A stretch of 62,133 nucleotides of DNA from Patescibacteria group bacterium (GTDB lineage Bacteria > Patescibacteriota > JABMPQ01 > JAHIRA01), in assembly GCA_018818205.1 (NCBI GenBank), contig JAHISJ010000029.1, positions 1 to 62,133 on the forward strand. Reading direction: 5' to 3'. The position numbers and the translations under genes are program-made. Numbering within the stretch: position 1 is the stretch's first letter; every line of letters begins with the position of its first letter. Positions 23,084 through 39,604 of the stretch are shown one piece after another. Below the pieces are notes generated by a model, which worked only from the letters and a program-made list of their open reading frames with translations, was not told the DNA's origin and searched no databases.

Positions 23084-23106
23084 GTTGTTTATAGATTGGA
23101 ATGAAT

Positions 23107-23116: not shown

Positions 23117-23118
23117 CG

Positions 23119-23267: not shown

Positions 23268-23328
23268 CTACCTTTATTAATTTCTTCACATGGTATATAC
23301 TACAGGTGCTCAAAATTAGTATACATCT

Positions 23329-24153: not shown

Positions 24154-24237
24154 ATTAGGGTGGGGACAAAGCTTAGACAGATTAGGGTGGGGACAAGCCC
24201 CACCCGTACGCAGTAGGGGTGCCCCTTGTGGGTACCC
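24152..24237 (+). repeat. Tandem AGATTAGGGTGGGGACAA(A)GC x2, GGGTGGGG hairpin and a REP (GTAGGGGTGCCCCTTGTGGGTACCC)
   Basis: Direct tandem copies are at 24152-24173 and 24178-24198. The hairpin is at 24185-24205 and the REP at 24213-24237, upstream of the RAYT gene. Confidence 0.8.
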
Positions 24238-24246
24238 GATGGGAAT

Positions 24247-24280
24247 AAAAGCGGAGAAAATTTATTTTTATCCGCTTTTT
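24247..24280 (+). terminator. Rho-independent terminator (after the LCP gene)
   Basis: AAAAGCGGA / TCCGCTTTT stem plus a T-run, ending right at the RAYT start codon. Confidence 0.65.
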
Positions 24281-24859
24281 ATGTATAGAAGAAAAAATTC
24301 GTTGAGGCTGAAGAGATGGGATTATTCAAATAATGGGTGGTACTTTGTGACGATATTTGTGCAAAATGGTGTATTAATGTTTGGTGAAGTTGTAAGAGGG
24401 GTAATGGAATCAAATGAGTCCGGAAAATTGGTTTATCAAGCATGGAAAGAGTTGCCGAAAAGTTACCCCACAATAGCAATTGATGAGTTTGTAATTATGC
24501 CAAATCATATGCACGGCATAATAATTAATAAAAACCCCGTAGGGGAGCCCCTTGTGGGCACCCAACCCCGAAGCACCCAATCCCGAAGCACCCAATCCCG
24601 AAGCACCCAATTCATGGGCATCACCAAATCCCATAATCATTATAGTAATGTGAGCAATATCATTGGCGCATATAAATCAATCACAACGAATGGCTATATA
24701 CGTAATGTAAAACAGAATAATTGGAAACCATTCCAAAAAAGAATTTGGCAACGTTCCTTCCACGACCACATTATCCAAGACGAACCTGATTTACATCGGA
24801 TTCGTACCTATATTCAGAATAATCCTCAAAATTGGGAATGTGGTTGTGATGATCAATAA
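24281..24859 (+). CDS. REP-associated tyrosine transposase (RAYT, IS200/IS605 Y1 HUH family)
   Basis: YFVTIFVQN, the HUH motif MPNHMHGII, and C-terminal IWQRSFHDHIIQDE..L.RIRTYIQNNP. I chose the start at 24281; the longer ORF from 24131 reads through repeats. Confidence 0.85.
   Translation: MYRRKNSLRLKRWDYSNNGWYFVTIFVQNGVLMFGEVVRGVMESNESGKLVYQAWKELPKSYPTIAIDEFVIMPNHMHGIIINKNPVGEPLVGTQPRSTQSRSTQSRSTQFMGITKSHNHYSNVSNIIGAYKSITTNGYIRNVKQNNWKPFQKRIWQRSFHDHIIQDEPDLHRIRTYIQNNPQNWECGCDDQ
24537..24563 (+). repeat. REP copy inside the RAYT coding sequence
   Basis: CCGTAGGGGAGCCCCTTGTGGGCACCC encodes PVGEPLVGT in frame. Confidence 0.8.
24567..24611 (+). repeat. 3 x 15-bp perfect tandem repeat inside the RAYT CDS
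   Basis: CCCGAAGCACCCAAT repeated three times, in frame (RSTQS x3). Confidence 0.9.
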
Positions 24860-24872
24860 TGCAATAACAAAA

Positions 24873-24916
24873 GGGGTGCCCACAAGAAAAGGGGTGCCCA
24901 CAAGGGGCACCCCTAC
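24873..24916 (-). repeat. REP half-copy + full REP in inverted orientation downstream of RAYT
   Basis: GGGGTGCCCACAAG, then GGGGTGCCCACAAGGGGCACCCCTAC, which is the reverse complement of the 24213-24237 type. Confidence 0.85.
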
Positions 24917-24930
24917 GTAAAAAACGATTT

Positions 24931-25017
24931 TGGTGGGCGAGAGAGGACTCGAACCTCCACGGCATATAATGCCACTAGCTCCTAAGGCTAGCGTGTCTAC
25001 CATTTCACCACTCGCCC
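24931..25017 (-). tRNA. tRNA-Leu (TAG), type II
   Basis: Acceptor GGGCGAG/CTCGCCC, anticodon stem CTAGC/GCTAG with loop CTTAGGA, a long variable arm, and T arm GGAGG-TTCGAGT-CCTCT. CCA is encoded. Confidence 0.9.
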
Positions 25018-25027
25018 TTCGCTCTGA

Positions 25028-25049
25028 TGCCCCTTGTGGGCGTCCGTAC
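25028..25049 (+). repeat. Partial REP next to the 5' end of tRNA-Leu(TAG)
   Basis: TGCCCCTTGTGGGCGTCCGTAC. Confidence 0.6.
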
Positions 25050-25243
25050 AAGTGTGAACGTGAGTATAACATAGAAAATTCTGTAGTTCAATAAAATCGA
25101 CCCATTTTGTCTTGTTTGAGGGATAAAATGAGTGAAATCTATTGACAAAAACACAAAAACGTGCTAAGATGTAGTGCTTGTACAATAGGAATATGCCTGT
25201 TCTATAAGCGTAATCGCACTTTTTTTAGTCATAAGGAGGAATT

Positions 25244-26869
25244 ATGGCGAAAAACCGTCAAAGCCAGCAGAAAGCTGGTGGGAGTCAGGGCCAACAGAAT
25301 GGTCCAGATTCCGAAAAGATTAAGGCAAGAATTGAGGAAGAAAAACGCTTCAAAAAGTTGAAGACACAATTGTTGATAGTTAGACGCACTTCTGATCAAG
25401 AGCGTGCGTTTAATGCGATCGTGGAATTTGATGATGTTTTTCCTGAGCTTGAATCTGCCGATCAGGCTTTTCTTATTCAGGTGGCTGGCCTTGATCAGCC
25501 GCAGGGTGGTGGTCAGGGGCAGGCACAGCAGCCGTCTCCAAATCAACCCTCTCCAGATTTATCAATTGAATACTATGAAGGCTTGAAGAAAGTTGCGTTA
25601 CAAGACCTTGAGGATGAGGATGATGTTGAGAGTGCGCACCAAGCTTCTCATGAGATTCTTGGTGTTCCTGAATTTGTAACAGCGCTTAAATCTGAGGAGA
25701 AAATTGCTCGCAAGAAAATTGAGCGTCGTGCCACCACCGCGTGGAAAGACGCAAAATTGAACAGCTTTTCTTTTAAAGCTGTTAAGTTCATTAATGCTGG
25801 TAGAAAGTTGAAATTCGTTGTTGAAAAATGGCCGCACATCTTGAGTGGTCTTTTTGGAAGTGTTGGCTTTATTGCCCTGCTTTCCAGCGCATTTTTCTTG
25901 TTGATAGTCATTGCATTGATCCTATTTGTAATTTGGTCGCACAATCCTATTCGTGACGCATCGATGCCGCTTAGGACGTTAAAGTCCTTTGGAATTCGTG
26001 GCTTCATGATCATTTTGCTCTTCTCCTTCTCGTCGCAGGCAAAACGCATTACAGGCGAGAAGGCAAACAAGACTTCCTGCTCAGGATGTTTTGTTAGTAA
26101 AATTGGTGACAATGCTGTTGAAGGGTGTAGAGGTTGCGCGGGATGTCGCGTTGAGCGACCTAGGGTTCCTGCGTGGCAGCAGAGGCGGAATGTACCGCTT
26201 CAGCCTACTTATGGACGCCCGAACGTTCCATTGCAACCAATGCCTGGTCAAGCAACCCCGCGGCCGCAGGTTCGTATGCCTCCAGTGTATTCAAAATGGA
26301 GTTGCGCGCAATTGGTGAACAGATTCCAACGGATTCCCGTGGGGAGTTATAGCAAGACAGTTCAGCTTATTGGATGTGAATCCAAGACGCACGTTCTGAG
26401 CTTGCGCCCCCGCTGGACATTGATTGTGCAGCATGTTGTTAATGGAGTTACTCTTCGCGATGCGACTGACCCGTCCAAGGACAGGTTTATGTCTATGTGG
26501 GGCAGGGATCTTAAAAAGGGTGAGAAGAAAGAGGACTTTCCATATCCTCAGTTCAAACCCGAGTCACTTGTTGTGTTGTTCAATAGGAAGCCGATCAAGA
26601 CCTTTACAAAAGGTGAACGGAGGTTTTTTGTCACTAACCTGACCGGTAAAGCGGTTAAGGTGAGTTTGGCGGAGAATGTTCCGAAGGAGTGGCTTTCACG
26701 AATTGGCACACTTAAAGGTGATGTTTGGACAATCACCCTTAAACTAACCCTTAAGAGTTCTTCAGAAAGGATCCTCGATCCTGATGTAGAGCTTGATACG
26801 CCCAAAAAGAAATCGCGCGTAAAAAAGAAGCGACGCCGTCGCAAAAGGAGGAAGAGGCGACGCCGCTAA
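25244..26869 (+). CDS. Membrane protein of unknown function with a Cys cluster and a poly-Arg/Lys C-terminal tail
   Basis: An AAGGAGG SD is present. The N-terminal region is acidic and Q-rich, followed by two or three TM helices (FGSVGFIALLSSAFFLLIVIALILFVIW; FMIILLFSFS). It contains CSGC...CRGCAGC and ends in KKKSRVKKKRRRRKRRKRRRR. Confidence 0.6.
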   Translation: MAKNRQSQQKAGGSQGQQNGPDSEKIKARIEEEKRFKKLKTQLLIVRRTSDQERAFNAIVEFDDVFPELESADQAFLIQVAGLDQPQGGGQGQAQQPSPNQPSPDLSIEYYEGLKKVALQDLEDEDDVESAHQASHEILGVPEFVTALKSEEKIARKKIERRATTAWKDAKLNSFSFKAVKFINAGRKLKFVVEKWPHILSGLFGSVGFIALLSSAFFLLIVIALILFVIWSHNPIRDASMPLRTLKSFGIRGFMIILLFSFSSQAKRITGEKANKTSCSGCFVSKIGDNAVEGCRGCAGCRVERPRVPAWQQRRNVPLQPTYGRPNVPLQPMPGQATPRPQVRMPPVYSKWSCAQLVNRFQRIPVGSYSKTVQLIGCESKTHVLSLRPRWTLIVQHVVNGVTLRDATDPSKDRFMSMWGRDLKKGEKKEDFPYPQFKPESLVVLFNRKPIKTFTKGERRFFVTNLTGKAVKVSLAENVPKEWLSRIGTLKGDVWTITLKLTLKSSSERILDPDVELDTPKKKSRVKKKRRRRKRRKRRRR

Positions 26870-26942
26870 TTAAAAAAACACGAGAGTCCACCACTCTTCC
26901 AGACACTCGTGTTACATGAACCGGAAGGGAGAAAATACATAG

Positions 26943-26978
26943 AGAGCTTTAACGCGTAGCGCTTAAAGCTCTTTTTTT
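26943..26978 (+). terminator. Rho-independent terminator
   Basis: AGAGCTTTAACGC / GCGCTTAAAGCTCT stem followed by TTTTTT. Confidence 0.7.
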
Positions 26979-27023
26979 AGCTTTAAAATATATTTGTTTT
27001 GGTTTTTACGATATAATACAACT

Positions 27024-28700
27024 ATGAATGATCATGCAGAAAAGTCAAAAAGAAAACTATTTGAGGTGGTACTTGTTTTAATACTTTGCATGCTTTTTAC
27101 ATTTATCCTCCAATTTTCGTTTAGCGATTTAATAGGCGTAGATGGCTATTATCATATTGCCATGGCGGATCTTATGAGAGATCAAGGCCTTACCCTAAAT
27201 GGGAGCAGCTTTCCCTATTTGTACTTAACGACACTCAAAGACAATTTTGCTGACCAGCATTTTTTGTATCATGTATTGCTTATCCCCTTCACCTATCTTG
27301 GATTACTCTTTGGTGCGAAGGTTGCCGCCGCTTTTTTTGCAGGCCTTGCCTTTTTTAGTGTCTATCTTCTTCTTAGAGTTCTAACGGGAAAACATGCGTG
27401 GTGGCTTATTCTCTTCTTTCCGCTTCTTTCATCAGGGTTTTTATTCAGAATGTTTTTGCCGCGAGCTCCTGCAGTGTCGCTTGCGTGCATGCTTTTGCTT
27501 ATTGCACTTCAGCTTGTCTACACAACAAAAAAACAGTCCCGAGGGTTTCTTGCTTTGCTCAGTATTGGCTCATTCTTTTTTGTGTGGCTCTATGGAGGAT
27601 TTGTGTTGTTTGGCGTGTGGTGTGTAATGTATACAGCCGTGTCACTTTTGGTGTCATTTTTTTCAAAGTCTTACACATCATTTAAACGTGTACTCAAAAG
27701 CTCAGTCGCCGTTTTCCTTGGATTTATTGTTGGGCTTTTGCTGCACCCCTTTTTCCCGGAAATACTACAATTTTTGCATATTCAGATTTTTAAAACAGGG
27801 ACAATGGCATCAATTCCTGTTGGAGGAGAGTGGAGCTCGTATGATTTTAACGGGTTTGTCTCAAATAATGGTATAGCTTTGCTTATATTTATGCTGGGAC
27901 TTATTGCTTTAGCTATAAATGTAGTTGCTGCTTGTGTTATTCACAAAATGAGGTTAGATGGTGAGTTTACGAAGAGTGGGACACTCTATTGGTTCAGGCT
28001 TTCTGGGGCAGGAAGAAGCGTAATAGTGAGCTTGGGACTATTTTCATTTCTCCTGTTTATTATGACGCTCGTGTCAAAACGGTATGTGGAGTACTTTGTG
28101 CCATTTGCGTTTGTTTTCTTTTGTGCACAGTTTGTATACTTTATTCCGCTCATTAAAAACGGCATAAAAAAAGGTGTATCTATACTACCAAAAAAGGTAA
28201 GATCGATACTTTCTAAAAAAAGTGTATGGGGAGGGAGTGTCTTTGTTATCTTGCTAGCGTGTGGCATTTTCTTGTATCAATACACGAGCATTTACGCATT
28301 TTATACGAGTGCCGTAGAGAATACTAACGAGAGGCCATATAGTTACATGGAAGAAATCACCCAGTATACGCTTGAGCATATTCCAGAAGGCGAGATTATT
28401 TTTAATGTTTCATGGGACGATTTCCCCGCGTTGTTTATGGGTGATCGTAAGCACTTGTATGTTTGGGGTCTTGATCCATTGTTTTTGTATGAACATGATC
28501 CTCGGCTGTATGAGCAGGGTAAGCTGGTGTGGGATGTGGAGGATCCGGATATGCTTAAGGAGATAATTACGCAGGATTTTAGGAGTACGTATATTTATGT
28601 TAATAGGCGCGATGAAAAGTTAATACAAACGCTTGATAGTCGGCGGGAATTTAAGAGACTTGTGGGGAATGAGGCGGGAGTGCTGTATGAGGTTTTGTAG
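27024..28700 (+). CDS. Polytopic membrane protein, GT-C-like (putative glycosyltransferase)
   Basis: About 12 hydrophobic helices with an early GVDGYYHIAMADL loop and a soluble C-terminal domain. The family assignment is by architecture only. Confidence 0.55.
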   Translation: MNDHAEKSKRKLFEVVLVLILCMLFTFILQFSFSDLIGVDGYYHIAMADLMRDQGLTLNGSSFPYLYLTTLKDNFADQHFLYHVLLIPFTYLGLLFGAKVAAAFFAGLAFFSVYLLLRVLTGKHAWWLILFFPLLSSGFLFRMFLPRAPAVSLACMLLLIALQLVYTTKKQSRGFLALLSIGSFFFVWLYGGFVLFGVWCVMYTAVSLLVSFFSKSYTSFKRVLKSSVAVFLGFIVGLLLHPFFPEILQFLHIQIFKTGTMASIPVGGEWSSYDFNGFVSNNGIALLIFMLGLIALAINVVAACVIHKMRLDGEFTKSGTLYWFRLSGAGRSVIVSLGLFSFLLFIMTLVSKRYVEYFVPFAFVFFCAQFVYFIPLIKNGIKKGVSILPKKVRSILSKKSVWGGSVFVILLACGIFLYQYTSIYAFYTSAVENTNERPYSYMEEITQYTLEHIPEGEIIFNVSWDDFPALFMGDRKHLYVWGLDPLFLYEHDPRLYEQGKLVWDVEDPDMLKEIITQDFRSTYIYVNRRDEKLIQTLDSRREFKRLVGNEAGVLYEVL

Positions 28701-30351
28701 GCGAGATTTTTGTCTTGTACACCACAAACTGCTCATTCTCAAACACCTTTTTAACAAAATCCACCGAATCAAAATCAAACCTATGGTACTTATCTGCCGC
28801 TTTTTCTATAAGTAGATACTCTATGGAACCATCAATGAGAAATTGCTTTTTCCACGGAATATTGTTTTGAAACGTCCAAAATGCAAAAATCTCTTGTTCT
28901 TTCTTTGCATAATTAATCGTTTGATGATCATTCCCGCTGTAGACTCGCTTAAAAATAATGCCGGGGATGAGTTGATCGTATCCGGGTGACGCAAGAATAT
29001 GCTCAGAGTCTCTGACATTTTTTTCTAAATAAGTAAAAACATCTTGCTCGTTTTTGTTCAGGAAATAGGCAAACTCTTTTTTTGAAAAATCATGAATTTG
29101 AAAAAAAGTAATATACAGCGGTGTAAGAAAGAGAGCTATGCTAAGGACACTCAGAAGAACACCTTGGTAGATAGTTGCGGCTGTTTTTCGTTTAAAAATT
29201 CCACTTTTTTGATACAGGGCAATGATTGCATAGGTGGATAGAATGCCAAGGGGAACAGAAATACCCTGAAACAGTTTTCTTTGAAACGGAAGCGGAGAAA
29301 ACGCAAGAATAAAGCAAGGTATAGCCCAAAACGCAAGAAAAATAAGTCGATAGTTACTTGTTTTTGCTGCCCTATATGATCCATAGAGTGCGAGTGGAAT
29401 GAGTGCACCAAAACCAATAAGTGTGGGGAACAGGTACGACGTTATTACTTTGTTTTGCATAGCCCACCCACCAAGCACCGGGTCAGTGTTAAAGAGAATG
29501 TAGAAGTAACTTGCGCATACTGCAAAAACAAAAAATATAAGCAGCAGTCTATATACATAACGAGGTTGCAGTCGTTTTTTTACAATAAAAGTGAAAAGAA
29601 CATAGAGAGTAGCCACTACGGTAATAGTGATAAGGTCATAGATATGCATTAAGCCTAATGTAGCTGCGGAAGTACCAAGAAAAAAGTACCCCCAAAAGGA
29701 CTCAGTTCTTCTTAGAAAAAGCCAAAAGATACTGAGCATAAGAGTAAGCGAAAGGGAAAACAATGCGGAATGTGAGAGAATGGAAAAGGTAAAGGCTTCA
29801 GAAATAACCATGTCTATCGGGTAAAATAGTCCCTGTCTGATTGGGATATTCTGAGAGATGTACGTGATGTAGGGCAAGGCAAAAAATGATATTCCCGCGC
29901 TCAGTGTGGTAACAACCAGAGCGATTTTTCTGTGCTTTTTGTTTTTAAAAAAGTATGCAATAAAGCAGTATAGCATCAAAATGCAGAGCAATCCCGAGAC
30001 AATTTTAGCAAGCTCAAATATAGTATGAGACTCAAGGTTGTTTACACTCGCAATCTTGCCAAGGAGCAACCACAGTGGTGAGAAGTATACTCCTGCATGT
30101 GGCTCTGAGGTAAAGAAGTTTTGGAAAAGAAACGCGCCGTTTTTAGATTGCTCAATGAGGTTGTAGTAGATGATGTAGTCCGCAGGTGAGGCATTAAGAA
30201 GATGCGTATAGTGAGCGCTTGAAGATGATATGTATGTTCCGTAGAAGTAGGGGATCTCTAAAAAGAGTATGATGACTATACCAAAAAGCAGCGCAAAGAG
30301 GAGTTCTTTAGTGGAGACTGATTTTTTGAATGAAGTGAGGAAGTTTTTCAT
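28651..30351 (-). CDS. Polytopic membrane protein, GT-C-like (putative glycosyltransferase)
   Basis: Many TM helices plus a C-terminal soluble domain. It is convergent with the previous gene and overlaps its 3' end by 50 nt. I chose the ATG at 30351. Confidence 0.55.
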   Translation of the reverse strand: MKNFLTSFKKSVSTKELLFALLFGIVIILFLEIPYFYGTYISSSSAHYTHLLNASPADYIIYYNLIEQSKNGAFLFQNFFTSEPHAGVYFSPLWLLLGKIASVNNLESHTIFELAKIVSGLLCILMLYCFIAYFFKNKKHRKIALVVTTLSAGISFFALPYITYISQNIPIRQGLFYPIDMVISEAFTFSILSHSALFSLSLTLMLSIFWLFLRRTESFWGYFFLGTSAATLGLMHIYDLITITVVATLYVLFTFIVKKRLQPRYVYRLLLIFFVFAVCASYFYILFNTDPVLGGWAMQNKVITSYLFPTLIGFGALIPLALYGSYRAAKTSNYRLIFLAFWAIPCFILAFSPLPFQRKLFQGISVPLGILSTYAIIALYQKSGIFKRKTAATIYQGVLLSVLSIALFLTPLYITFFQIHDFSKKEFAYFLNKNEQDVFTYLEKNVRDSEHILASPGYDQLIPGIIFKRVYSGNDHQTINYAKKEQEIFAFWTFQNNIPWKKQFLIDGSIEYLLIEKAADKYHRFDFDSVDFVKKVFENEQFVVYKTKISPTKPHTALPPHSPQVS

Positions 30352-30371
30352 GACGGTGTACTTGCTCAAAT

Positions 30372-30569: not shown

Positions 30570-30971
30570 TTAGAATGCGGAACCAGTCGTTTCACTTGCA
30601 AACAATGCGTTTACAATGTAATCCGTTGCAATGAACGCAACGACGATGATGACCGTACCAATGATGGCATAGATCATAATCTTCTTCCCTGTTTCTACAC
30701 GTTCGTCATTACCCGCTGATGTTGCGTACATCACACCTCCGTAGACAAACATGGCAACGAGGATGATGCCAACGAGACCCAATATCCATTTAACAATTGT
30801 CGCAACAAATGTTGGCAGATCTCCACCTCTCAGCCCCGAATACTTTTGGACAGTATTGAGTGAGTTACTAATTGATGGTGCAGTCGTAGCAAGTGCTGTC
30901 GGAGCTACGAGTGCAAAACCAAATACTGCAATAAGTGCAATGGCAATAACTTTGATATATGATTTATTCAT
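30570..30971 (-). CDS. T4SS-pilin family (TrbC/VirB2-like) protein, minimal form
   Basis: Signal peptide, then the shared block VYGGVMYATSAGNDERVETGKKIMIYAIIGTVIIVVAF flanked by two hydrophobic helices. Confidence 0.75.
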   Translation of the reverse strand: MNKSYIKVIAIALIAVFGFALVAPTALATTAPSISNSLNTVQKYSGLRGGDLPTFVATIVKWILGLVGIILVAMFVYGGVMYATSAGNDERVETGKKIMIYAIIGTVIIVVAFIATDYIVNALFASETTGSAF

Positions 30972-31090
30972 GTTGTCACCTCCCTTCAGCTAGGGTTAGC
31001 TTATTATTTTTTTAAACTTAGAAATAGTATAGCATACTTTCAGTAAAATGCGAAGATTTGTCAAGTTGAATACAGATAATTGTGGAAAAC

Positions 31091-31951
31091 TTATTTTTGT
31101 TTGCAAATCCCATCTGCTGCGCCACCTAAAATTTCATCGTATAATGAAACATTTTCCTGCTTTTCACATGTAAGTGGAGATACACAGCCGTGATTTGAAA
31201 TAGTCTCGCTGGCGCTTATTGAAGAGGTACTGCATTTGTCATTCTCTTTAAGTAGACAATATTTTATAGGAGAATTTGGCGGCTGGAGACAGCGAGTATT
31301 TGGGTGACAGGTTTTACCTTCTACAAGGAAGGTACGTTTATACCGTTCGCACTGTTCAGAAGTCATGTCTTTACACTCTCCTCCACAGAGAGCATAGAGG
31401 GGTAATACGGCCTTCTGTTCTCCCGGTTGTTTCTGAGCATTTTCAGGCGTGTTTCCAGAACCTGATGATGGAAGAGTGCCACTGCCAGTATTCCCTGATT
31501 GGCTTGATTGATTTGCGTTTTGGGTGGGGCTTGAAGGGTCATTTTGCGTAGCAGCATTGGGGGTAAATACAGGCGTTTCTGTTGGGTCACTAAAGAGTGC
31601 ACCGGTTACATAACTTGCAATGAGAAATGCGGCAACGACAATAACCATACCAATAACGCCATATGTGATAATCTTTTTTCCAAGCTCTATGCGCTCTTGA
31701 CTGCCTGCTGACGTTGCATACGTTACTCCGCCATAAACCATAACGGCAAGAAGCACTACGGCAAGGGCCGCAAGTACCCATCTGATGATATTTCCAACAA
31801 AGACATCTGCTTTCTGGTTTGTAAGTCCCAGGTTAGTTACGTTTTTTAATCCAAAATCAGTAACGGCATGAGTCGCGGACGGAGCAAAAATAAGAACAAC
31901 AAGTGCTATAAGTAACAAACTGGTGCATAAAAATGTAACAACGGGCTTCAT
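31091..31951 (-). CDS. T4SS-pilin family protein with a C-terminal low-complexity + Cys-rich extension
   Basis: The pilin block is VYGGVTYATSAGSQERIELGKKIITYGVIGMVIVVAAF. A P/S/Q/N-rich linker and a Cys-containing tail follow. I chose the start at 31951. Confidence 0.7.
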   Translation of the reverse strand: MKPVVTFLCTSLLLIALVVLIFAPSATHAVTDFGLKNVTNLGLTNQKADVFVGNIIRWVLAALAVVLLAVMVYGGVTYATSAGSQERIELGKKIITYGVIGMVIVVAAFLIASYVTGALFSDPTETPVFTPNAATQNDPSSPTQNANQSSQSGNTGSGTLPSSGSGNTPENAQKQPGEQKAVLPLYALCGGECKDMTSEQCERYKRTFLVEGKTCHPNTRCLQPPNSPIKYCLLKENDKCSTSSISASETISNHGCVSPLTCEKQENVSLYDEILGGAADGICKQK

Positions 31952-31961
31952 CGTCAAAAAA

Positions 31962-32324
31962 TTATTTGGTAAGTGAACCGATAACAAATTCAGCAATGAT
32001 GCGCGCTGCCGCGACAACTGCAATACCTATGATAGCGTATGTGATGGTTTTCTTTGCGGAACCAACTCTCTCCTCGCTTCCCGCCGAGGTGAGATACAAT
32101 GTACCACCATACACCAGCATGGCGATTAATATTACGGCAAGGACCCCCGTTACTGCATTGATAATCTTAGTTACATACTCTGTAGGACTTGCTTTTGGAA
32201 GATCAGTCTTTGCTAGGAATCCTAAGCCAAAGTCTCCCGCCGCAGCTGCAGTCTCAGAAAAAACAAACAGGCCTATGCAGGCAAGAAGAACTACACTAAA
32301 AATCACAATACTCTTTTTGCTCAT
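31962..32324 (-). CDS. T4SS-pilin family protein, minimal form
   Basis: VYGGTLYLTSAGSEERVGSAKKTITYAIIGIAVVAAA. I chose the start at 32324 (MSKKSIVIF). Confidence 0.72.
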   Translation of the reverse strand: MSKKSIVIFSVVLLACIGLFVFSETAAAAGDFGLGFLAKTDLPKASPTEYVTKIINAVTGVLAVILIAMLVYGGTLYLTSAGSEERVGSAKKTITYAIIGIAVVAAARIIAEFVIGSLTK

Positions 32325-32380
32325 ACGTGTGTTTACTAGTGGGTGAAAATCACCCAAGTTTATAGGTAAGAAACAAACTA

Positions 32381-33037
32381 TTAACCAGCACCAAGCGCAC
32401 CCATAACAAACTTTATTATAGTATATGCACCAAGAGAAATAACAAGACCAATGATGCCGGCGGTAAGAGCGGATTTCCCTTTCTTTGCATTTTCTTCACT
32501 ACCACCAGACGTTGCGTACAGGAGTCCTCCATAAATAAATACCGCAGCGGCAACTACTGCAACAAAGCCTAAAATATAGTTGATAATCTTTACGATTAGA
32601 TCACCGATATTGGTAACACCAAGGGGGTTATCAAGAGTTACAGATGTTGTTTTTGTACCACCGGTGGTGGCTCCTGGTGTGGCAGCAGCATTGGTATTAC
32701 TTGATGCGGGTGTAGATGCACATGTGCCGTTTACACACTTGATGGTACCGCCGCATTCAGCATCTTTTGTACACGCTTTTTGTCCAGTTGCTGCTGGAGC
32801 AGTGGTACATACATCATTTACACAGGTTTCTCCAGTTTGACATTCATGATCTATTTGGCAAATTCCTCCACTGGGACCACAAGCTCCCTTTGTTCCACCA
32901 CTTGGTATGGTACACGATTGACCCCGAGAACATGCAGAGCTATCCGTGCATTCAACTGCATACGTTGTTGATGACACAAACAACAGACCACCTAAAAGGA
33001 AGGCAACGACTATGAATAACTTTATTACATTGTTCAT
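32381..33037 (-). CDS. T4SS-pilin family protein with an N-terminal Cys-rich repeat domain
   Basis: Signal peptide and three C-x3-[DS]-x-C-x2-G-x2-C-type modules precede IYGGLLYATSGGSEENAKKGKSALTAGIIGLVISLGAY. Confidence 0.72.
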   Translation of the reverse strand: MNNVIKLFIVVAFLLGGLLFVSSTTYAVECTDSSACSRGQSCTIPSGGTKGACGPSGGICQIDHECQTGETCVNDVCTTAPAATGQKACTKDAECGGTIKCVNGTCASTPASSNTNAAATPGATTGGTKTTSVTLDNPLGVTNIGDLIVKIINYILGFVAVVAAAVFIYGGLLYATSGGSEENAKKGKSALTAGIIGLVISLGAYTIIKFVMGALGAG

Positions 33038-33075
33038 TGAAAAAATATGTTATTTTATTTACCTAGCTTTTTATC

Positions 33076-34590
33076 TCAAACGCCCTTCCACTTCCACGCG
33101 TCTGTTGGGCAGGTGAAACTTGGCTTATACCACGAACCAGCTTGCTTTGCGCCAACCGCACTCATGACACTATTGATGATAAGCCAACCTGACATCATGA
33201 TGACCATGCCAATAATTGCGGCGCCAAGGGCTTTTTTTGCTTTGCCTTTTCTTTCTTCATTGCCACCTGAGGTCATGTACATTAAACCACTGATGACAAT
33301 CATGAGGCCACCAATGGGTGCTAAAAACATTGTAGCATACCGTGCAAAGTTTGTTACTACGTTCATTATATCACAGATTGTGCATGCACCGCAGTTTAAA
33401 CACTCATTTGACATACCTTCTGTAAAACGGCCGCGAGAGCCGGGGTCAGCTTTGCATTGCGCGGATATGTCGAGTGATGTTACCCCAAGTTGCGTGGGTG
33501 CCTGGGTTACCGGATTTGATGGGTTTGCACATTGCTTTGCTGTTGTTTTGCATGCGTAAACCTGCTTTCCGTCCTGTGTTTTTGTTTCCAGCTCTTCACC
33601 AGCTCCACATTTTGAGGTGGATGTTTTTTCTTTAAATGAAACGTTACCAGCTGTGACAAAGGCTGCGTTGTATGTTTGTTGACACTTTTGGCCTGTTGAG
33701 CATTGACTATCACTTGCGCAGCTATGACCAAGGTTCAATTTTGCCATACAATATGTTGTACCGGTTTCCATGTTAGGATTAGAACCTGAATCTTTACCCG
33801 CTTGGGCATCGCTATTTGTAGCAGCTCTGCAGGAAAGTCCATCTTTACACTGACTGGTTGATGAACACTCTTTGTAAACAGTTGACCCTTTATCTAAGGA
33901 TTGGCATGAGCACGTATCGCTTCCAGGACCACATCCTTCTGATGTTTTTTTGCTATTTAAGCACTTAAGTCCGTAGTTACAATCAGAATCACGTCTGCAC
34001 GCAGTTGCCGTTGTTACGTACTTTTTGTTTACGCAGTATCCATGAGATTTATCAGCGCGTACAATACATGATTCACCATCTGAACATTCTGCATCATCAT
34101 CAGCAAATTGAGGATTACACTTTGTGTCAGTAGATTTAATGCACTTGCTATACGGGTCTTTGCCAAGACATTTCTCGTCGGATTTGCAGTCACTTGATGT
34201 TGTGCATTTCTTTTCGTTTCCATTTGCCAACGATGTTTGCCCGTCCTGACATTTTTTATCTTTGCATACGAGTGGTGCTTGACAGTCGTTATCAAAGGAA
34301 CATAAGTCACCTTGGCTCTTATCTCCTCTACATTGATTGTACACACAATTACCCGTCCTGCATTCAATATCTTTCAAACAAGCTCCCCCTTTTGTTTTCA
34401 CACAATGCTTCTTATTGTCCGATGACCCTTCAACCTTCTCACAAATATACCCACTACCACAGTCAGCTGAAGCATTACATACTTCTCCAGGGTCATTGAC
34501 GGCAAAAGCATAAGTAGTTACGCCGAAAATAGTGACAATCAAAAAACATAAACAATGAAAGATAGTTACTATCGGGTATGCTCTTTTCAT
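33076..34590 (-). CDS. T4SS-pilin family protein with a ~380-aa N-terminal Cys-rich repeat domain
   Basis: Signal peptide, then repeated modules such as CNASADCGSGYIC, CLKDIECRTGNC, CSFDNDCQAPLVC, CRRDSDCNYGLKC and CASDSQCSTGQKC. The C-terminus is LMYMTSGGNEERKGKAKKALGAAIIGMVIMMSGW. Confidence 0.72.
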   Translation of the reverse strand: MKRAYPIVTIFHCLCFLIVTIFGVTTYAFAVNDPGEVCNASADCGSGYICEKVEGSSDNKKHCVKTKGGACLKDIECRTGNCVYNQCRGDKSQGDLCSFDNDCQAPLVCKDKKCQDGQTSLANGNEKKCTTSSDCKSDEKCLGKDPYSKCIKSTDTKCNPQFADDDAECSDGESCIVRADKSHGYCVNKKYVTTATACRRDSDCNYGLKCLNSKKTSEGCGPGSDTCSCQSLDKGSTVYKECSSTSQCKDGLSCRAATNSDAQAGKDSGSNPNMETGTTYCMAKLNLGHSCASDSQCSTGQKCQQTYNAAFVTAGNVSFKEKTSTSKCGAGEELETKTQDGKQVYACKTTAKQCANPSNPVTQAPTQLGVTSLDISAQCKADPGSRGRFTEGMSNECLNCGACTICDIMNVVTNFARYATMFLAPIGGLMIVISGLMYMTSGGNEERKGKAKKALGAAIIGMVIMMSGWLIINSVMSAVGAKQAGSWYKPSFTCPTDAWKWKGV

Positions 34591-34601: not shown

Positions 34602-35894
34602 TTATTCCATTAGTGCACTCACCTGCTGATTTGCGGTGTTTAAAGCATCTTCCGGTTCTGCCTCACCTAACACCACTGAGTCAATCATATTGTTAAAAAT
34701 TGCTTCAACTTTTGCAGCCTCCGGTTGGTACCAGCTCTTTGCGGTTAAGGTTTGCTCCGCAAACACTCTAAGAAACGGATCTTCAACCTGTTCTTTGATT
34801 ATATCTTTACGTGCTGCCGGTCTATTGGTTGCTTCAACAAATTTTTGATTTTGTTCTTTTTTGGCAAGAAACATGAGAAAGTCCCAGGCTTCCGCTTTAT
34901 GCTCTGAAGATTTACTGACTACCTCGCCCCAGTAGTTAGCGTAATTTACCTCTTTGGGTGTGTCTGCAATTTGCGGCATTGGCGCTACACCAACGTTCAT
35001 TTTTGGTGCTTTTGATTTAATGATTTCGTCTTGGTAGCTGTAGCTAAACATCATGGCCGTTTTTTCTTCTATAAACGCATCAACGGAATGAGGCATGGTT
35101 GGTGTCCATGTGTAGACCGGTTTTCTGGGGTTTGCAAAGTCGGTATAAAAGGTGAGTGCGTCAAGGCCGGGGAAATAGGTGCCGGTGCTTGTTTCCTTGC
35201 TGCGATTAAACGTTGCAATGCCTTGCTCGGGGTCAATCATTTCTGTGCCGTTTTGCAGCATGAGGAGAGACAAAATATCCGGAGCTCTGTTGATGTTGGA
35301 AGCGGTTCCCAGTGCTGCGCCTGAGACCTCAACATCAGCAACACTATCTATTTGGGTTATTTTTTCTACTGCATCAATAAGCTCTGTCCAATTTGCCGGC
35401 GGCTCTACAATGAATGCTGAATTTAGCATGTCTTTGTTGTAATAAAGCGCGAGAGTATCCATGGAAAGAGGGAATCCATAAATTCTGTTGTCTGCAACAA
35501 AATCACTGGTTACCACATCAACGTAGGTATCAGAATATGCCGGAAGCGAGAGAAGGTCCTCTGGAAGGGGATCAAGCTTGGATTCATGTTTTGGAAGCCA
35601 GGTATTATGAATTGACCACATGTCCGGACCTTTGCTCGAAGCTAGGCCATCTGTTACTTTTTGTTCGTACTCTGTGAAGGTCAATTTCTTATATTCTATA
35701 GTGATGTGTGGGTGTAGCTGCTGGTACTCGGCAATAAATGGTTCAAAGACATCGCTATCATCAAATACCCGCCAATACTGGAGGGTGATTGGCTCGGGAG
35801 GGGCTTCACCTTTATCCCCGCCGCAATTCTTAAAACCAAAAGCCGCAAACACCATAAGCGCTGCGAGAAGAATAATAAGAACTCTCTTTGTCAT
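34602..35894 (-). CDS. ABC transporter extracellular solute-binding lipoprotein (family 1, sugar-type)
   Basis: A lipobox-like AFGFKNC, with length and sequence blocks (LQYWRVFDD, ...LYYNKDML..., ...WYQP) typical of SBP_bac_1. Confidence 0.75.
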   Translation of the reverse strand: MTKRVLIILLAALMVFAAFGFKNCGGDKGEAPPEPITLQYWRVFDDSDVFEPFIAEYQQLHPHITIEYKKLTFTEYEQKVTDGLASSKGPDMWSIHNTWLPKHESKLDPLPEDLLSLPAYSDTYVDVVTSDFVADNRIYGFPLSMDTLALYYNKDMLNSAFIVEPPANWTELIDAVEKITQIDSVADVEVSGAALGTASNINRAPDILSLLMLQNGTEMIDPEQGIATFNRSKETSTGTYFPGLDALTFYTDFANPRKPVYTWTPTMPHSVDAFIEEKTAMMFSYSYQDEIIKSKAPKMNVGVAPMPQIADTPKEVNYANYWGEVVSKSSEHKAEAWDFLMFLAKKEQNQKFVEATNRPAARKDIIKEQVEDPFLRVFAEQTLTAKSWYQPEAAKVEAIFNNMIDSVVLGEAEPEDALNTANQQVSALME

Positions 35895-35920: not shown

Positions 35921-36793
35921 CTAGCACATTTTGTCTTTGAGGAATGCTTTAAACGCGTCCTTGAGGTCATTCCTGAGAAGGCTAAAGTGAACAACCGCTT
36001 TTAAATATTCTATTTTATTGCCACAATCAAAATAGGTTCCTTCTACGGCTTTTGCGTAGATAGGTCGTGATTTCATCAGTGTTAAGATACCATCGGGAAG
36101 CTGAATTTCTCCACCAATGCCCGGCTTAGTTTGCATAAGCGTGTCAAAGATATCTGGTGTCAAAAGCCATCTTGCTGCGGAAATATAATTTGACGGTGCT
36201 TTTTCCGGCGAGGGTTTCTCAACAATACCCTTTAGCTCAAAGAGTCCCTTTGAAATTTCTGCTTGCGGGTCAATGACGCCGTATTTATCTACCTCGTTTT
36301 TGTTTACTTCAAAAACAGCTAAAACAGGATCTTGATATTTGTTGTATACGTCTATGAGCTGCTTTATTGAAGGACTCTTGCCGGTGATAATGTCATCACC
36401 ACCACACACAATAAACGGCTCATCACCAACTAGTTCACGTGCTGAAAGCACGGCATGACCAAGGCCTTTTTGCTCGCCTTGGCGGACATACGCATATGAG
36501 ATGCCGGTGCTGATTGACTGAATCTCAGCGAGCTCTTTGGTTTTTCCTTTCTTCTCTAATAGATTTTCGAGCTCAAGCGACCTATCAAAATGGTCCTCAA
36601 TAGCTCGCTTGTTTGAGCTTGTCACAAAAATAATCTGCTCAATACCGGACTTTTTTGCTTCCTCAACAATATATTGGACAACGGGTTTATCTACAATAGG
36701 CAACATCTCTTTTGGAGATGCTTTGGTTGCAGGTAAAAACCGTGTGCCAAACCCGGCAACGGGAATCACTACTTTTCTTACTGGTTTAGTCAT
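35921..36793 (-). CDS. galU: UTP--glucose-1-phosphate uridylyltransferase
   Basis: VIPVAGFGTRFLPATKASPKEMLPIVDKPVVQYIVEEA, with a later VEKP block. I chose the start at 36793; the longer ORF to 36994 crosses a MITE. Confidence 0.88.
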   Translation of the reverse strand: MTKPVRKVVIPVAGFGTRFLPATKASPKEMLPIVDKPVVQYIVEEAKKSGIEQIIFVTSSNKRAIEDHFDRSLELENLLEKKGKTKELAEIQSISTGISYAYVRQGEQKGLGHAVLSARELVGDEPFIVCGGDDIITGKSPSIKQLIDVYNKYQDPVLAVFEVNKNEVDKYGVIDPQAEISKGLFELKGIVEKPSPEKAPSNYISAARWLLTPDIFDTLMQTKPGIGGEIQLPDGILTLMKSRPIYAKAVEGTYFDCGNKIEYLKAVVHFSLLRNDLKDAFKAFLKDKMC

Positions 36794-36897
36794 ACTACTA
36801 CAATTTCTTATATCGATTTGAAGTATACCATATTTGGATGATTTTTCAAGAATATGAGGGAGAAGTGTGGGTAAGTTTTGAAGAATCATTATTTTTG

Positions 36898-36940
36898 TGT
36901 CATCCCGGGTAATCATTAAGAAATGATTTTCGGGATGACA
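36898..36940. repeat. MITE-like hairpin repeat (short copy)
   Basis: TGTCATCCCGGGTAATCATTAAGAAATGATTTTCGGGATGACA. Confidence 0.75.
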
Positions 36941-37027
36941 TGACATTCGACATGACGATTCTAATTTAGTATAATTAAGCCAATAATAAGTCACGTATTT
37001 AACGCGACGAGTTTGTGTGCTTACACT

Positions 37028-39604
37028 ATGAAACTGAGAAAGAAGTACAAAAAAATAGGTGTTTTGGTGGTACTGGGTACAGCACTCGGGTTTTTGAGTT
37101 CTGTTGCGGGGATTGATGCTGAAAGCCGCTTTGATACAACTGCGCCGCGAACGCCGCAGGGGCTTAACGTTACCCTTGGCAATGGAAAAACAGAGCTTAC
37201 CTGGAATGAAAACGGCGAATGGGATCTTTTCTCATACGTGTTGCTCGTTCGTGAAGCACAAGAAAAGGAAGCATCTACAAATCTTCTTACCGGAAAAACA
37301 GATACGTACATACTTGATGACCTTGAGCCAAAAAGGCAGTATTTTGTGAGTCTTGCTGCACGTGACATTTCCGGGAATCTAAGTGCTCCCTCCCCTGAAA
37401 TTGGATTTCAATCGCCCAGTGAATCAAAGGGAGAGGTAAGTGTTCATACGTGGATTCCCGCTTCAGCTGATAGAGTTGACGCGATGCTGGCGTTTGAGGA
37501 AAACAAGGAACTTTTTACATCGGTTAGCCCTTTTATCTATGCGCTTGAGCCTGATGGGTCAATTTCAAAAAGAGGGACCATTTTTTCTGAAGATGAGCAA
37601 AAGAAGACGCAAGACACGGGGACTGAAGTAATCCCGACTATCACCAATAACTTTGACAAAGACAAAAAGGGAACCGAGCTTTTAAAGGACACAGAGAAAA
37701 CAAAACGACACATTGATCTTATTCTCTCAGAGGTTGAAAAAAGCAATTACGATGGAATTGATATTGATTATGAAAATCTGTCACCCGAGGTAAAGGATGC
37801 GTTTACCTCATTTATAGCGACCCTCTCCTCAAAGCTTCACGAGAAAGGGAAAACGCTTAGTGTGACGGTGCAAGCTAAACGTGGCGACGACCAGAACTGG
37901 GATGGTGTTGGTGCAAGTGATTACGAAAAGTTGGGGGAAGTTGCTGACTCGGTGCGCATAATGACGTATGACTACTCCAGATTGAATACGCCACCGGGAC
38001 CTATTGCGCCGCGGACGTGGTTTAGAGATGTCTACACGTATGCCGTGTCTAAAATCCCTGCAGAAAAGATAGTTGCAGGCGTTCCTTCGTATGGGTATAA
38101 GTGGTGTACAAAATCGGTGAATGATTCATGTGAGAGTACGGGGTTAGTGTGGACCGGGGTACAAAATATTATTAAAAAGCATCAGCCGCTTGTGGAATGG
38201 AACAATGAGGCGGCATCGCCGTGGTTTATGTACACCGATGAAGCGGGCAATACCTATGTAGTCAATTTTGAAAACCATCAAAGCCTTTCTGCAAAACTTG
38301 CTGTTGTTAAAGAGCTTGGGCTCTCAGGTGTAGTCATTTGGCGACTTGGAAACGAGGACCCCGAAAACTATAGAGTGATTAAAGAAAAGCTTACACCGCA
38401 GACGGTGCTCCCTTCAGAGGTTTTAGTGGAGGGCAAGGATAAAGAGATCTATCTTTCTTGGGATAAACCAAAGCGTACTCAGGTTACGGGGTATCGCATT
38501 GAGTATGAATCAAAAAGTACGGAGAAGCGTTTTGTTGATATTTTGGATGAGAATGAATATACGATTCCTGCGCTTATGAACAATGAGCAATACACTGTTA
38601 CCGTGTCGCCCATTTCATCAACACATGATGTGCTTTCTGATGAAATGTACGGTGAGGCGCAGCCCAGTTCAAAACTTATCTTTACGGTTACCCCAAAAGA
38701 CTTACGTTATCCGGGAGATATCCCTGATCTTTCTATTGATACAATCGATACACAGTCAGTAGATGTTTCATTTAGTGCGCCCGGCGATGAGTATTTTGAA
38801 GGAACCGTGTCCGAGTTTGATATACGGTATTCTAAAGATACTATCACCGAGGAGAATTTTAATGAGGCACGCAAACTCTCAAATGTGCCAAAACCGGTAA
38901 ATCCCCATGAAGTAGTCAATTGGCAGCTCAAGGGTCTTGAGAGTGGGATAAGCTACACTATCGCGGTGAAGGCTATTGACGAGGCGGGAAACGCATCAAA
39001 TATGTCAAATGTAGTATTCGCTCGAACAATCGATATTGTGCCGCCAAAGGCTCCGGAAGTTGCAACTATTCTCCCCAAAGATAAGAGTGTTGAGGTGATC
39101 TGGAAGGCAAATAATGAACCCGATCTTGCCGGCTATAATCTCTACTTTAAACGAGAGAAGGAAGCATATTCAGAGTTTTCTGTATCCAAAGATAAAAATC
39201 ACTTTGTTATTCCCGATCTTGATAATAATCGTACCTATTCAGTTGCGCTTGTTGCGTTTGATGGGAATGGCAATGAGAGTCATCGGTCTGAGGTAAAGGA
39301 AGCAGTGCCGAGAGCGGATAATTCACTTACTAGGCTTTCAGAAGAGATGCTTTTAGAGAAAGAAAAAATTTCAGGAACACTCTATCTCTTTGGGCAAAAG
39401 GTGTTTAATGAAAAGGCACTACCGTACGTTGCTATGATCTCAGTTGTGGTAGTGAATATCTTTATCTACTATTCGTTTAAAAATGAGATTTTACGACTTC
39501 TTAAGGGGAGTGCTCATGCAGCTGAAGTGACTCATGCACCATTAGTAGTGCGAAGACAGAAGATCACTGATTTAAAGAGGAAAGGTAGGAAGAGGGTCGT
39601 CTAA
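37028..39604 (+). CDS. GH18 (chitinase-like) glycoside hydrolase flanked by fibronectin-III-like domains, C-terminal TM
   Basis: YDGIDIDYE matches the GH18 catalytic DxxDxDxE motif. FN3-like segments lie before and after it. The start codon is uncertain (37013 or 37028). Confidence 0.78.
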   Translation: MKLRKKYKKIGVLVVLGTALGFLSSVAGIDAESRFDTTAPRTPQGLNVTLGNGKTELTWNENGEWDLFSYVLLVREAQEKEASTNLLTGKTDTYILDDLEPKRQYFVSLAARDISGNLSAPSPEIGFQSPSESKGEVSVHTWIPASADRVDAMLAFEENKELFTSVSPFIYALEPDGSISKRGTIFSEDEQKKTQDTGTEVIPTITNNFDKDKKGTELLKDTEKTKRHIDLILSEVEKSNYDGIDIDYENLSPEVKDAFTSFIATLSSKLHEKGKTLSVTVQAKRGDDQNWDGVGASDYEKLGEVADSVRIMTYDYSRLNTPPGPIAPRTWFRDVYTYAVSKIPAEKIVAGVPSYGYKWCTKSVNDSCESTGLVWTGVQNIIKKHQPLVEWNNEAASPWFMYTDEAGNTYVVNFENHQSLSAKLAVVKELGLSGVVIWRLGNEDPENYRVIKEKLTPQTVLPSEVLVEGKDKEIYLSWDKPKRTQVTGYRIEYESKSTEKRFVDILDENEYTIPALMNNEQYTVTVSPISSTHDVLSDEMYGEAQPSSKLIFTVTPKDLRYPGDIPDLSIDTIDTQSVDVSFSAPGDEYFEGTVSEFDIRYSKDTITEENFNEARKLSNVPKPVNPHEVVNWQLKGLESGISYTIAVKAIDEAGNASNMSNVVFARTIDIVPPKAPEVATILPKDKSVEVIWKANNEPDLAGYNLYFKREKEAYSEFSVSKDKNHFVIPDLDNNRTYSVALVAFDGNGNESHRSEVKEAVPRADNSLTRLSEEMLLEKEKISGTLYLFGQKVFNEKALPYVAMISVVVVNIFIYYSFKNEILRLLKGSAHAAEVTHAPLVVRRQKITDLKRKGRKRVV

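Follow-up and report, generated by a model that had tools for sequence, protein, structure and literature searches.

The stretch of DNA analysed here (hereafter, the window) is a whole 62-kb contig of 62,133 nucleotides from a Patescibacteria group bacterium, JAHISJ010000029.1, and it carries five adjacent genes for proteins of the T4SS_pilin family (PF18895; T4SS, type IV secretion system). The comparison with related loci indicates that this array occupies the downstream part of a conserved operon, which begins with the gene of a solute-binding lipoprotein (SBP) and in which specialised pilin paralogues follow one another in a fixed order. In our judgement, the array has an even chance of being a chromosomal, SBP-led version of the VirB2-like pilin arrays of Patescibacteria that builds a heteromeric surface structure, and this is the reading that we favour.

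An operon of pilin-family genes headed by a solute-binding lipoprotein

The genes of the operon are listed below (ORF, open reading frame); here and elsewhere, L numbers designate related loci.

34602..35894, minus strand: orphan solute-binding lipoprotein (SBP_bac_1/8), first gene of the operon; SBP_bac_8 98.5 bits, SBP_bac_1 96.1 bits
33076..34590, minus strand: ORF5, modular pilin of 504 amino acids, array position 1; PF18895 31.5 bits, positional orthologues
32381..33037, minus strand: ORF4, modular pilin of 218 amino acids, array position 2; PF18895 32.6 bits, Dickkopf_N 33.3 bits
31962..32324, minus strand: ORF3, minimal pilin of 120 amino acids, array position 3; PF18895 47.6 bits, best match at position 3 of L005 with 53% core identity
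31091..31951, minus strand: ORF2, pilin with a C-terminal extension, 286 amino acids, array position 4; PF18895 33.0 bits, Cys positions
30570..30971, minus strand: ORF1, minimal pilin of 133 amino acids, last position, candidate major subunit; PF18895 47.6 bits

The five minus-strand ORFs span positions 30570-34590, as the initial annotation, made from the letters of the window, had placed them. The same products (504, 218, 120/131, 286/308 and 133 amino acids) have been called independently on two other public assemblies, ENA ERZ27247128 (a 62,118-bp contig) and Logan SRR6514274 (17.7 kb), each of them 99.9% identical to the window; thus, the array is no assembly artefact. The proposed membership of a TrbC/VirB2-like T4SS_pilin family was confirmed by profile search, since all five proteins scored above the PF18895 gathering score of 26.6 bits, and precomputed Pfam results on independent gene calls concur. 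Against NF045849 (Mbov_0395 family pilin-like conjugal transfer protein; cutoff 40 bits), ORF1 to ORF5 gave 38.0, 27.6, 37.2, 35.2 and 21.6 bits. The five proteins therefore seem to be related to this NCBIfam equivalog for pilin-like proteins of Mycoplasma integrative and conjugative elements, yet they fall short of its cutoff.

The alignment confirmed a block common to all five proteins, with the invariant columns G, Y, T, S, G, E, K, I and G. The motif given for it earlier has to be corrected in one respect: ORF1 to ORF4 carry Y-G-G-x2-Y-x-T-S-[AG]-G-x-[EQD]-E, whereas ORF5 reads V-I-S-G-L-M-Y-M-T-S-G-G-N-E-E, with I-S-G where the other four have Y-G-G. Core identity to ORF1 is 30-48%, and a hidden Markov model (HMM) built from the five cores detected no sixth copy in the window. 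By hydropathy, each protein presents an N-terminal charged-then-hydrophobic segment similar to a signal peptide, a site of the A-x-A type, and then two hydrophobic helices with a short loop, polar and charged, between them. In ORF2 and ORF3 the ATG starts yield proper signal peptides, whereas the longer TTG alternatives do not.

The solute-binding protein had been mentioned earlier as a neighbour of the array. It is indeed such a protein, but more than a neighbour, being the conserved first gene of the operon. Its gene lies on the same strand, with 11 nt between its end and the start of ORF5, and its N-terminus is of the lipoprotein type (lipobox-like FGFKNC, with G-[FL]-G-C-K or FGL-x-S-C in close homologues). 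The similarity to the GanS and MalE equivalogs is only weak (46 and 27 bits vs cutoffs of 700 and 291). A scan with the core alignment over one genome per GTDB species gave 47 related loci, almost all from Patescibacteria metagenome-assembled genomes, whose ORFs were searched with the core HMM; most of these loci hold arrays of 2-10 PF18895 genes. In 20 of the 47, an SBP homologue (32-55% identity) is found directly upstream of the first pilin gene and on the same strand, and the two genes overlap by 4 nt in L002, L003 and L005 and by 1 nt in L001. In addition, six SBP homologues on long contigs were picked regardless of their neighbours (L050-L055), and in every case 2-6 PF18895 genes come directly next. 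Since neither an ABC permease nor an ABC ATPase (BPD_transp, ABC_tran) was found in the window or within 10 kb in L050-L055, we consider the SBP an orphan. Of the candidates scored, 3,309 proteins belong to its large family at E<=1e-20, and the named ones come from Patescibacteria, Parcubacteria or Portnoybacteria.

This linkage lends weight to another explanation, in which the PF18895 hairpins would stay in the cytoplasmic membrane, independently of a T4SS, as a hetero-oligomeric platform or anchor displaying the ectodomains. Such a complex would work physically with the SBP lipoprotein, for instance in capturing host-derived glycans or in organising the envelope, and "pilin" would be a misnomer here. 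The position of the SBP gene immediately upstream in both sets of loci, the 4-nt overlaps, which suggest translational coupling, and the orphan condition of the SBP speak for it, as does the envelope and glycan context formed by GalU, GH18, LCP and Wzy_C genes. However, operon linkage is no proof of physical interaction. PF18895 proteins are part of T4SS clusters in Saccharimonadia, L017 has them close to a VirB4-like ATPase, and Pfam matches of relatives show homology of the family with TrbC/VirB2. We regard this explanation, which is the main rival of the favoured one, as possible, though doubtful.

The order observed in the window (large Cys-rich N-extension, medium Cys-rich N-extension, minimal pilin, Cys-rich C-tail, minimal pilin) recurs in L002, L003, L005, L050 and L051, and a reduced form of it is present in L001, L004, L006 and L009. 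The C-tail architecture of ORF2 occupies position 4 in L002, L003, L005 and L051, and position 5 in L050. Consequently, the adhesin-on-pilin design that had been described as unusual is not peculiar to this locus. When the core domains of the window and of seven related arrays were clustered, the first genes grouped together and so did the last genes; furthermore, the second and third genes of the window have their best matches at the same positions in other arrays. The positional orthologues of ORF5 are the first gene after the SBP in L002, L003, L005 and L051. The pilins diverge much faster than the neighbouring genes: in the same genomes, identity is 28-31% for the ORF5 orthologues, 45-52% for those of ORF1 and 51-53% for the SBP. 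A search for DNA repeats or conversion tracts linking the paralogues of the window found none. Positional orthology together with the lack of such repeats indicates that the array is an old, ordered and sub-functionalised set and not a recent duplication, and argues against a cassette of interchangeable variants.

A cassette of that kind would hold the same pilin in five alternative forms, of which a single one would be in use at any time, to change surface specificity or evade host defences, as proposed for the VirB2 paralogues of Bartonella and Anaplasma; the idea has been raised for Patescibacteria arrays too (PMC12102498). The divergence of the paralogues (27-39% full-length identity) and the pace at which the pilins outrun the flanking genes would agree with it. 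But each position has its own orthologue elsewhere, with the same domain architecture and in the same order, and conversion tracts are missing. The spacing of the five genes is operon-like, with a strong Shine-Dalgarno sequence (GGGAGGTG) in ORF1 only, and the pilin genes show zero differences among the three independent assemblies, which gives no signal either way on diversifying selection. We consider this possibility clearly unlikely.

Cysteine-rich extensions and predicted topology

The division of the array into two minimal and three extended pilins agrees with the earlier description: ORF1 and ORF3 are minimal, and ORF2, ORF4 and ORF5 carry Cys-rich extensions (0, 11, 1, 12 and 44 Cys in ORF1 to ORF5, respectively). 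ORF5 consists of a signal peptide, a Cys-rich ectodomain of about 380 amino acids, a juxtamembrane Cys cluster before the first transmembrane helix (TM1), the hairpin core and a C-terminal Cys after the second (TM2). At least seven modules had been proposed for its N-terminal domain; we count seven by the strict pattern and one variant.

33607..34479, minus strand: Cys-module region of ORF5 (residues 38-328), repeats C-x5-C-x4-6-C-x3-30-C; regular expression and alignment
33373..33402, minus strand: juxtamembrane motif C-L-N-C-G-A-C-T-I-C of ORF5 (residues 397-406), just before TM1; conservation
33109-33111, minus strand: C494 of ORF5, just after TM2; paired in evolution with the juxtamembrane motif

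ORF4 is built of a signal peptide, three 4-Cys modules (32720-32950), a T/S/A-rich linker and the hairpin core (32387-32626). Its 12 Cys make up exactly three C-x5-C-x5-C-x4-10-C modules, which is the number originally assigned to it. ORF2 has the core first, then a 70-aa low-complexity linker rich in S, P, T, N and Q (31388-31600) and a 10-Cys tail (31103-31387), so the low-complexity and Cys-rich C-terminus attributed to it is also present; the Cys spacing of this tail differs from that of the ORF4 and ORF5 modules.

The N-terminal region of ORF4, and of no other array protein, passes the cutoff of Dickkopf_N (PF04706; 33.3 bits vs 25). In the AlphaFold2 model of ORF4, computed from a 33-sequence alignment (mean pLDDT 74.9), three small beta-hairpin modules come first, and a disordered linker connects them to a long hairpin of two helices (144-176 and 181-216). 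Foldseek matched the modules with the N-terminal region of Dkk4 (5o57; probability 0.99, 38% identity over 58 columns), and also paired them with knottin-type protease inhibitors. The ORF5 modules remained below every family cutoff, with only 15.6 bits for PF04706. A word-indexed search of 5.8e9 proteins with full-length ORF5 (E<=1e-3) returned the query alone; this reflects a limit of sensitivity and not an orphan status, because BLASTP on the ORFs of related loci gave orthologues with 28-31% identity.

In the predicted topology both termini, and hence every Cys-rich segment, are extracellular. The prediction is supported by the fact that all Cys-rich segments, whether N- or C-terminal, fall on the side where disulfides can form. 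Thus, the earlier proposal of Cys modules decorating a filament is topologically sound in what concerns their extracellular placement. In the ORF5 ectodomain, 22 of 44 Cys columns are kept in all four orthologues, compared with 45 of 450 non-Cys columns, a pattern that looks like that of a disulfide scaffold with fast-changing surfaces. Moreover, the first-position pilins of L001-L009, among others, have C-x2-C-G-x-C-x3-D before TM1 and W-x-P-x-x-C at the C-terminus.

The resemblance of the modules to knottin protease inhibitors and to the N-terminal domain of Dkk, and the flexible low-complexity linkers that part them from the anchor, could also be explained if these proteins were membrane-tethered precursors, whose modules are cleaved off to act on the host as soluble effectors or inhibitors. 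We find this very improbable: neither a protease nor a processing site can be discerned, the module is missing from two of the five proteins, the ectodomain region is linked to the core through the juxtamembrane Cys motifs, and the PF18895 family offers no precedent.

Cys-rich extension of the pilin hairpin had also been considered unusual, and this does not stand. With ORF4 as the query, an exhaustive search with phmmer over 1.84 billion cluster representatives gave 19,464 clusters at E<=0.001. In the best 150 of them, a sample biased by the Cys modules of the query itself, 86 have an N-extension of at least 90 amino acids and 83 of these carry at least 4 Cys. In addition, pilin-family proteins of 577-632 amino acids with 43-67 Cys are present in L026, L028 and L038. 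The fusion therefore appears to be common and not peculiar to the window locus.

Two further kinds of protein were observed in the related sequences. The first comprises giants of 1,526-2,987 amino acids, with one PF18895 core near the N-terminus, a C-terminal extension of 1,368-2,861 residues and up to 142 Cys (L011:4349-9919, L012:9668-16726, L014:9438-17180, L019:9845-18808, L025:9881-15016, L030:6898-11478 and L035:9680-14794). They are usually preceded by one or two pilin-family proteins of 330-720 amino acids, and in L030 the next gene encodes a PKD-repeat protein. The second, found among the cluster representatives of the phmmer search, comprises poly-pilins with 6, 7 or 8 concatenated PF18895 cores (P0003, 555 aa; P0007, 606 aa; P0008, 820 aa), one N-terminal signal peptide and 12-16 predicted membrane helices. 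Since they have no internal signal peptides, they are unlike fused gene calls.

Pilin likeness, secretion genes and the favoured reading

In the reading that we favour, the SBP lipoprotein and five Sec-exported, two-helix PF18895 hairpins would be produced from one operon. After cleavage of the signal peptide, the hairpin would lie in the membrane with its termini outside and the T-S-[AG]-G-x-[EQD]-E...K-K loop inside, and the five position-specific paralogues may together form a single heteromeric structure on the surface, which could be a short pilus or a fibril that stays anchored. ORF1 could be the bulk subunit, because it is minimal, best conserved (45-72% identity to homologues) and last in the array, and because no other member has a strong Shine-Dalgarno sequence. 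This sequence is a weak indication, and so are the 119-nt gap upstream of ORF1 and the promoter-like match in it; in the promoter and terminator scans, matches were no commoner than in shuffled sequence. ORF5, ORF4 and ORF2 would be minor subunits, because the helical lattice of a VirB2-type filament would have no room for an ectodomain of 380 amino acids on each of its subunits. They would show variable, disulfide-stabilised 4-Cys modules of the Dickkopf-N/knottin-like type on flexible linkers, and may contact the host cell surface with them. A disulfide probably staples the first-position pilin by joining the juxtamembrane segments on its N- and C-terminal sides, in analogy to the cyclisation of other pilins. 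To be extracted and polymerised, the subunits would need a VirB4-type T4SS whose genes lie in another part of the genome.

At the level of the fold, the AlphaFold2 model of mature ORF1 has a short helix followed by two long ones (24-56 and 61-96; hairpin pLDDT about 90), which, as modelled, is how subunits of the VirB2/TraA type are generally laid out. A Foldseek comparison with the PDB placed the Aeropyrum pernix conjugation pilus (8dfu) at rank 7 for ORF4 and rank 3 for ORF1, and the Agrobacterium VirB2 T-pilus at rank 10 for ORF4 (8exh_A; TM-score 0.61 on the target, 23% identity) and rank 38 for ORF1 (8fai). A profile search of PDB sequences with the core alignment gave nothing meaningful. 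Membership among the solved pilins at fold level is consistent with these models but unproven. The tie to TrbC/VirB2 at the sequence level comes from relatives: proteins of L051-L055 match PF04956 (TrbC/VirB2) as well as PF18895 in precomputed Pfam, and the supplement of PMC10633639 has two Southlakia proteins that match both families.

With regard to the secretion machinery, every ORF of at least 175 amino acids in the window was scanned against Pfam, and those that gave no family were rescanned at relaxed thresholds and against NCBIfam. No VirB4, VirD4, VirB6, VirB3/PrgI or relaxase was found among them, in agreement with the initial annotation, which had seen no VirB4, VirD4 or VirB6. In the 47 related loci, the non-pilin ORFs of at least 450 amino acids were screened for a Walker A motif, and 16 of the 17 carriers were scanned; the remaining one, a protein of L022, has the size and motif position of three scanned ComM-like proteins. 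A T4SS-type ATPase was present only in L017 (Dojkabacteria), where a HerA/DUF87-type protein of 839 amino acids is encoded about 7 kb away from an array of six pilins, and in L047 (a Firmicute), where it is a coupling protein; neither locus is SBP-led. The other Walker A proteins were discarded as VirB4 candidates, since the scans identify them as FtsH, SMC, PilB, ComM-like and EngA. The precomputed Pfam tables of L050-L055 contain no T4SS ATPase.

The PilB-type ATPase (T2SSE) of type IV pili (T4P) is encoded 5-10 kb from an SBP-led array in L009:15777-17444, L033:16268-17896 and L050:21130-21398. This may be a coincidence, T4P genes being common in these genomes.

Several observations weigh against a T4SS pilus. 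None of the five window proteins reaches the PF04956 cutoff of 27.9 bits, and only ORF5 leaves a trace (11.3 bits, E 0.43). The Foldseek pilin matches are non-significant (E>1) and stand amid unrelated generic helical hairpins. Neither a VirB4 nor a coupling protein is found near any of the 27 SBP-led arrays, within flanks of up to 10 kb. Poly-pilins and extensions of 1,400-2,900 amino acids in relatives are hard to fit in a VirB2-type helical filament. That the same genome encodes a T4SS is quite probable, but as a prior drawn from the share of Patescibacteria assemblies with VirB4. Finally, in the literature considered here, no pilus has been observed for any Patescibacteria T4SS (PMC12857230; PMC10633639), and a 2025 review regards the possible pilus of these monoderm systems as an open question (PMC12857230).

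The membrane platform described above gains from two of these points, namely the lack of T4SS genes near SBP-led arrays and the existence of single polypeptides of 6-8 concatenated hairpins and of giants anchored by one hairpin. More generally, SBP-led PF18895 arrays could be a distinct and widespread Patescibacteria surface system and not T4SS pili, which we judge to be on the unlikely side. They would then form a VirB4-independent hetero-oligomer, membrane-embedded or shortly protruding and co-produced with the SBP-fold lipoprotein. This assembly would present disulfide-rich host-recognition modules for host attachment or nutrient capture, with poly-pilins and giants as its variants.

A large part of the diversity of bacteria belongs to Patescibacteria, whose cells live attached to those of a host. 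In TM7x, a tandem "secreted array" of small proteins with Sec signals adjoins the T4SS (McLean 2020, PMC7427843). In Southlakia epibionticum, the sole species tested, a predicted pilin series inside the T4SS cluster is essential (Wang 2023, PMC10633639); according to the supplement of that work, the series consists of the PF18895 proteins SEML1_0014-0019 beside the VirB4 homologue SEML1_0008, in a cluster with no SBP_bac_1 gene. In a recent survey (Quinonero-Coronel 2025, PMC12102498), VirB4 is reported in 2,417 of 3,035 Patescibacteria assemblies (about 80%), and VirB2-like pilins in 1,948 VirB4-positive assemblies, near virB4 in 1,135 and away from it in 813 (about 40%). The survey counts 441 arrays of 2-11 genes with a mean identity of 25% in 383 assemblies; its Fig. 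S9 legend indicates that arrays were scored near virB4. Hence, a tandem array with no ATPase nearby, pointed out as noteworthy in the initial annotation, is real here, but tandem pilin arrays and the separation of pilins from virB4 are already known for the phylum. The survey detected no VirB5 or PrgB-type adhesin proteins in Patescibacteria; the modular pilins could fill the role that such proteins have in other systems.

The window array shares with the published Patescibacteria arrays the PF18895 family, the tandem arrangement of divergent paralogues (2-11 in the arrays reported), the Sec signal peptides and the monoderm, ultrasmall bacterial host. As far as the published descriptions available here go, those arrays lie in or near a virB4 cluster, whereas the window array is SBP-headed and has no T4SS gene within 62 kb; the same descriptions are silent on ectodomain fusions, whether Cys-rich or giant, and on positional orthology. 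Within a limited library, we found no report of SBP linkage, of Cys-rich or modular VirB2-type pilins or of positional orthology, which is absence of evidence only. What appears to be new is the class of operons led by an SBP, the constant order in which the specialised paralogues follow each other, the conservation of the juxtamembrane Cys and the breadth of ectodomain fusion to the PF18895 hairpin.

Like the VirB2/TrbC/TraA pilins of diderm T4SSs and the archaeal CedA1/TedC, the window proteins are small Sec-inserted hairpins with a short, polar, positive loop and outward termini. Unlike them, they fall below the PF04956 cutoff and carry natural ectodomains of 80-380 amino acids (up to 2,861 in relatives). 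To our knowledge, the known conjugative pilins are bare subunits of 60-120 amino acids, save for engineered short epitope fusions to F-pilin. The modular T4P pilins PilB and PilC of Streptococcus sanguinis have a binding module grafted on a pilin module and are minor beside a bare major pilin, the gene of which belongs to the same locus. The window pilins would follow the same design principle, although fold and machinery are unrelated (VirB2-like vs T4P) and their modules are disulfide-rich 4-Cys repeats at either terminus. In the cyclic pilins (RP4 TrbC, Ti VirB2, H-pilus TrhA; PMC12037004) the ends are covalently joined on the outer face; in the first-position pilins the link, as suggested by Cys conservation, would be a disulfide and not a peptide bond. 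As for the modules, ORF4 resembles Dickkopf_N/knottin-like domains and bacterial Cys-rich repeats (PF04706, TIGR04201 Myxo_Cys_RPT, DUF7107) not only in its PF04706 score and its match to Dkk4 but also in its spacing and in the consensus C-x2-[DS]-x-[DEQ]-C-x2-G-x2-C. Unlike those domains and repeats, the window modules are attached to the membrane hairpin of a bacterial pilin family.

A large class of pilin arrays seems to be wired to a conserved sugar-type binding lipoprotein instead of a secretion motor, and the pilin hairpin would routinely bear fast-evolving, disulfide-rich ectodomains. The modular pilins are candidates for host recognition, with the SBP as a possible ligand sensor. The locus also questions whether all PF18895 members are pilus subunits, and calls for caution in counting PF18895 matches as evidence of a T4SS.

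Neighbouring genes and other features of the window

The rest of the window is ordinary chromosome, with PolA, UvrB, RuvA, S4, TruB, the DNA polymerase III delta subunit and four tRNAs, and around the array there are cell-envelope genes (GalU, a GH18-fn3 protein, an LCP transferase and a Wzy_C protein). Two of the genes that flank the operon are the following:

35921..36994, minus strand: GalU (UTP-glucose-1-phosphate uridylyltransferase); TIGR01099 352.5 bits (cutoff 326.8)
28651..30369, minus strand: polytopic membrane protein of 572 amino acids, downstream of the array; no Pfam or NCBIfam family

GalU is found upstream of the SBP in 14 loci and is a conserved upstream neighbour in this lineage. 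Homologues of the 572-aa membrane protein (26-30% identity) lie downstream of the arrays in L002, L003, L031 and L051. Its identification as TrbJ was rejected, the NCBIfam match of 21.8 bits vs a cutoff of 164 being hydrophobic noise. The label "GT-C-like", given earlier to the neighbouring membrane proteins, could not be verified by any Pfam or NCBIfam family match; a DUF2079 match in a neighbour of the L051 array gives it no support, because that protein is not a homologue of the window's membrane protein. The six base substitutions that separate the window from the two other assemblies are all in the gene of the 572-aa protein, and one of these assemblies also differs by a 15-bp intergenic indel.

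The region 21600-30369 encodes the Wzy_C protein (O-antigen ligase/O-oligosaccharyltransferase-type), the LCP transferase and three polytopic membrane proteins of about 550 amino acids that match no family. The proximity of this region, together with GalU upstream, raises the idea that the S/T/P-rich linkers of the pilins might be glycosylated. Divergent from galU and beside the pilin operon, an 863-aa GH18 (chitinase-like) protein with four fibronectin-III domains is encoded at 37013-39604 on the plus strand; it is a candidate host-wall or glycan hydrolase.

Farther from the array, overlapping PRTase-CE and NADAR genes are found with a HATPase_c_4 protein and an AAA_14/DUF4143 ATPase nearby (2961-4671, 5613-6614 and 8123-9259), interspersed with tRNA genes at 7286-8053. 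Together they look like a small variable or conflict-system island. This reduced Patescibacteria genome also encodes a c-di-GMP phosphodiesterase, a protein with a degenerate GGDEF and an EAL domain (10571-11878, minus strand; EAL 196.9 bits). Three lamin-tail domains and one PKD domain are present in a 1,018-aa protein (14913-17969, plus strand), which is probably secreted or on the surface. Finally, a Bro-N domain protein (42315-43160, minus strand) and a fragmentary IS200-like Y1 transposase domain (24131-24859, plus strand) are present in housekeeping surroundings.

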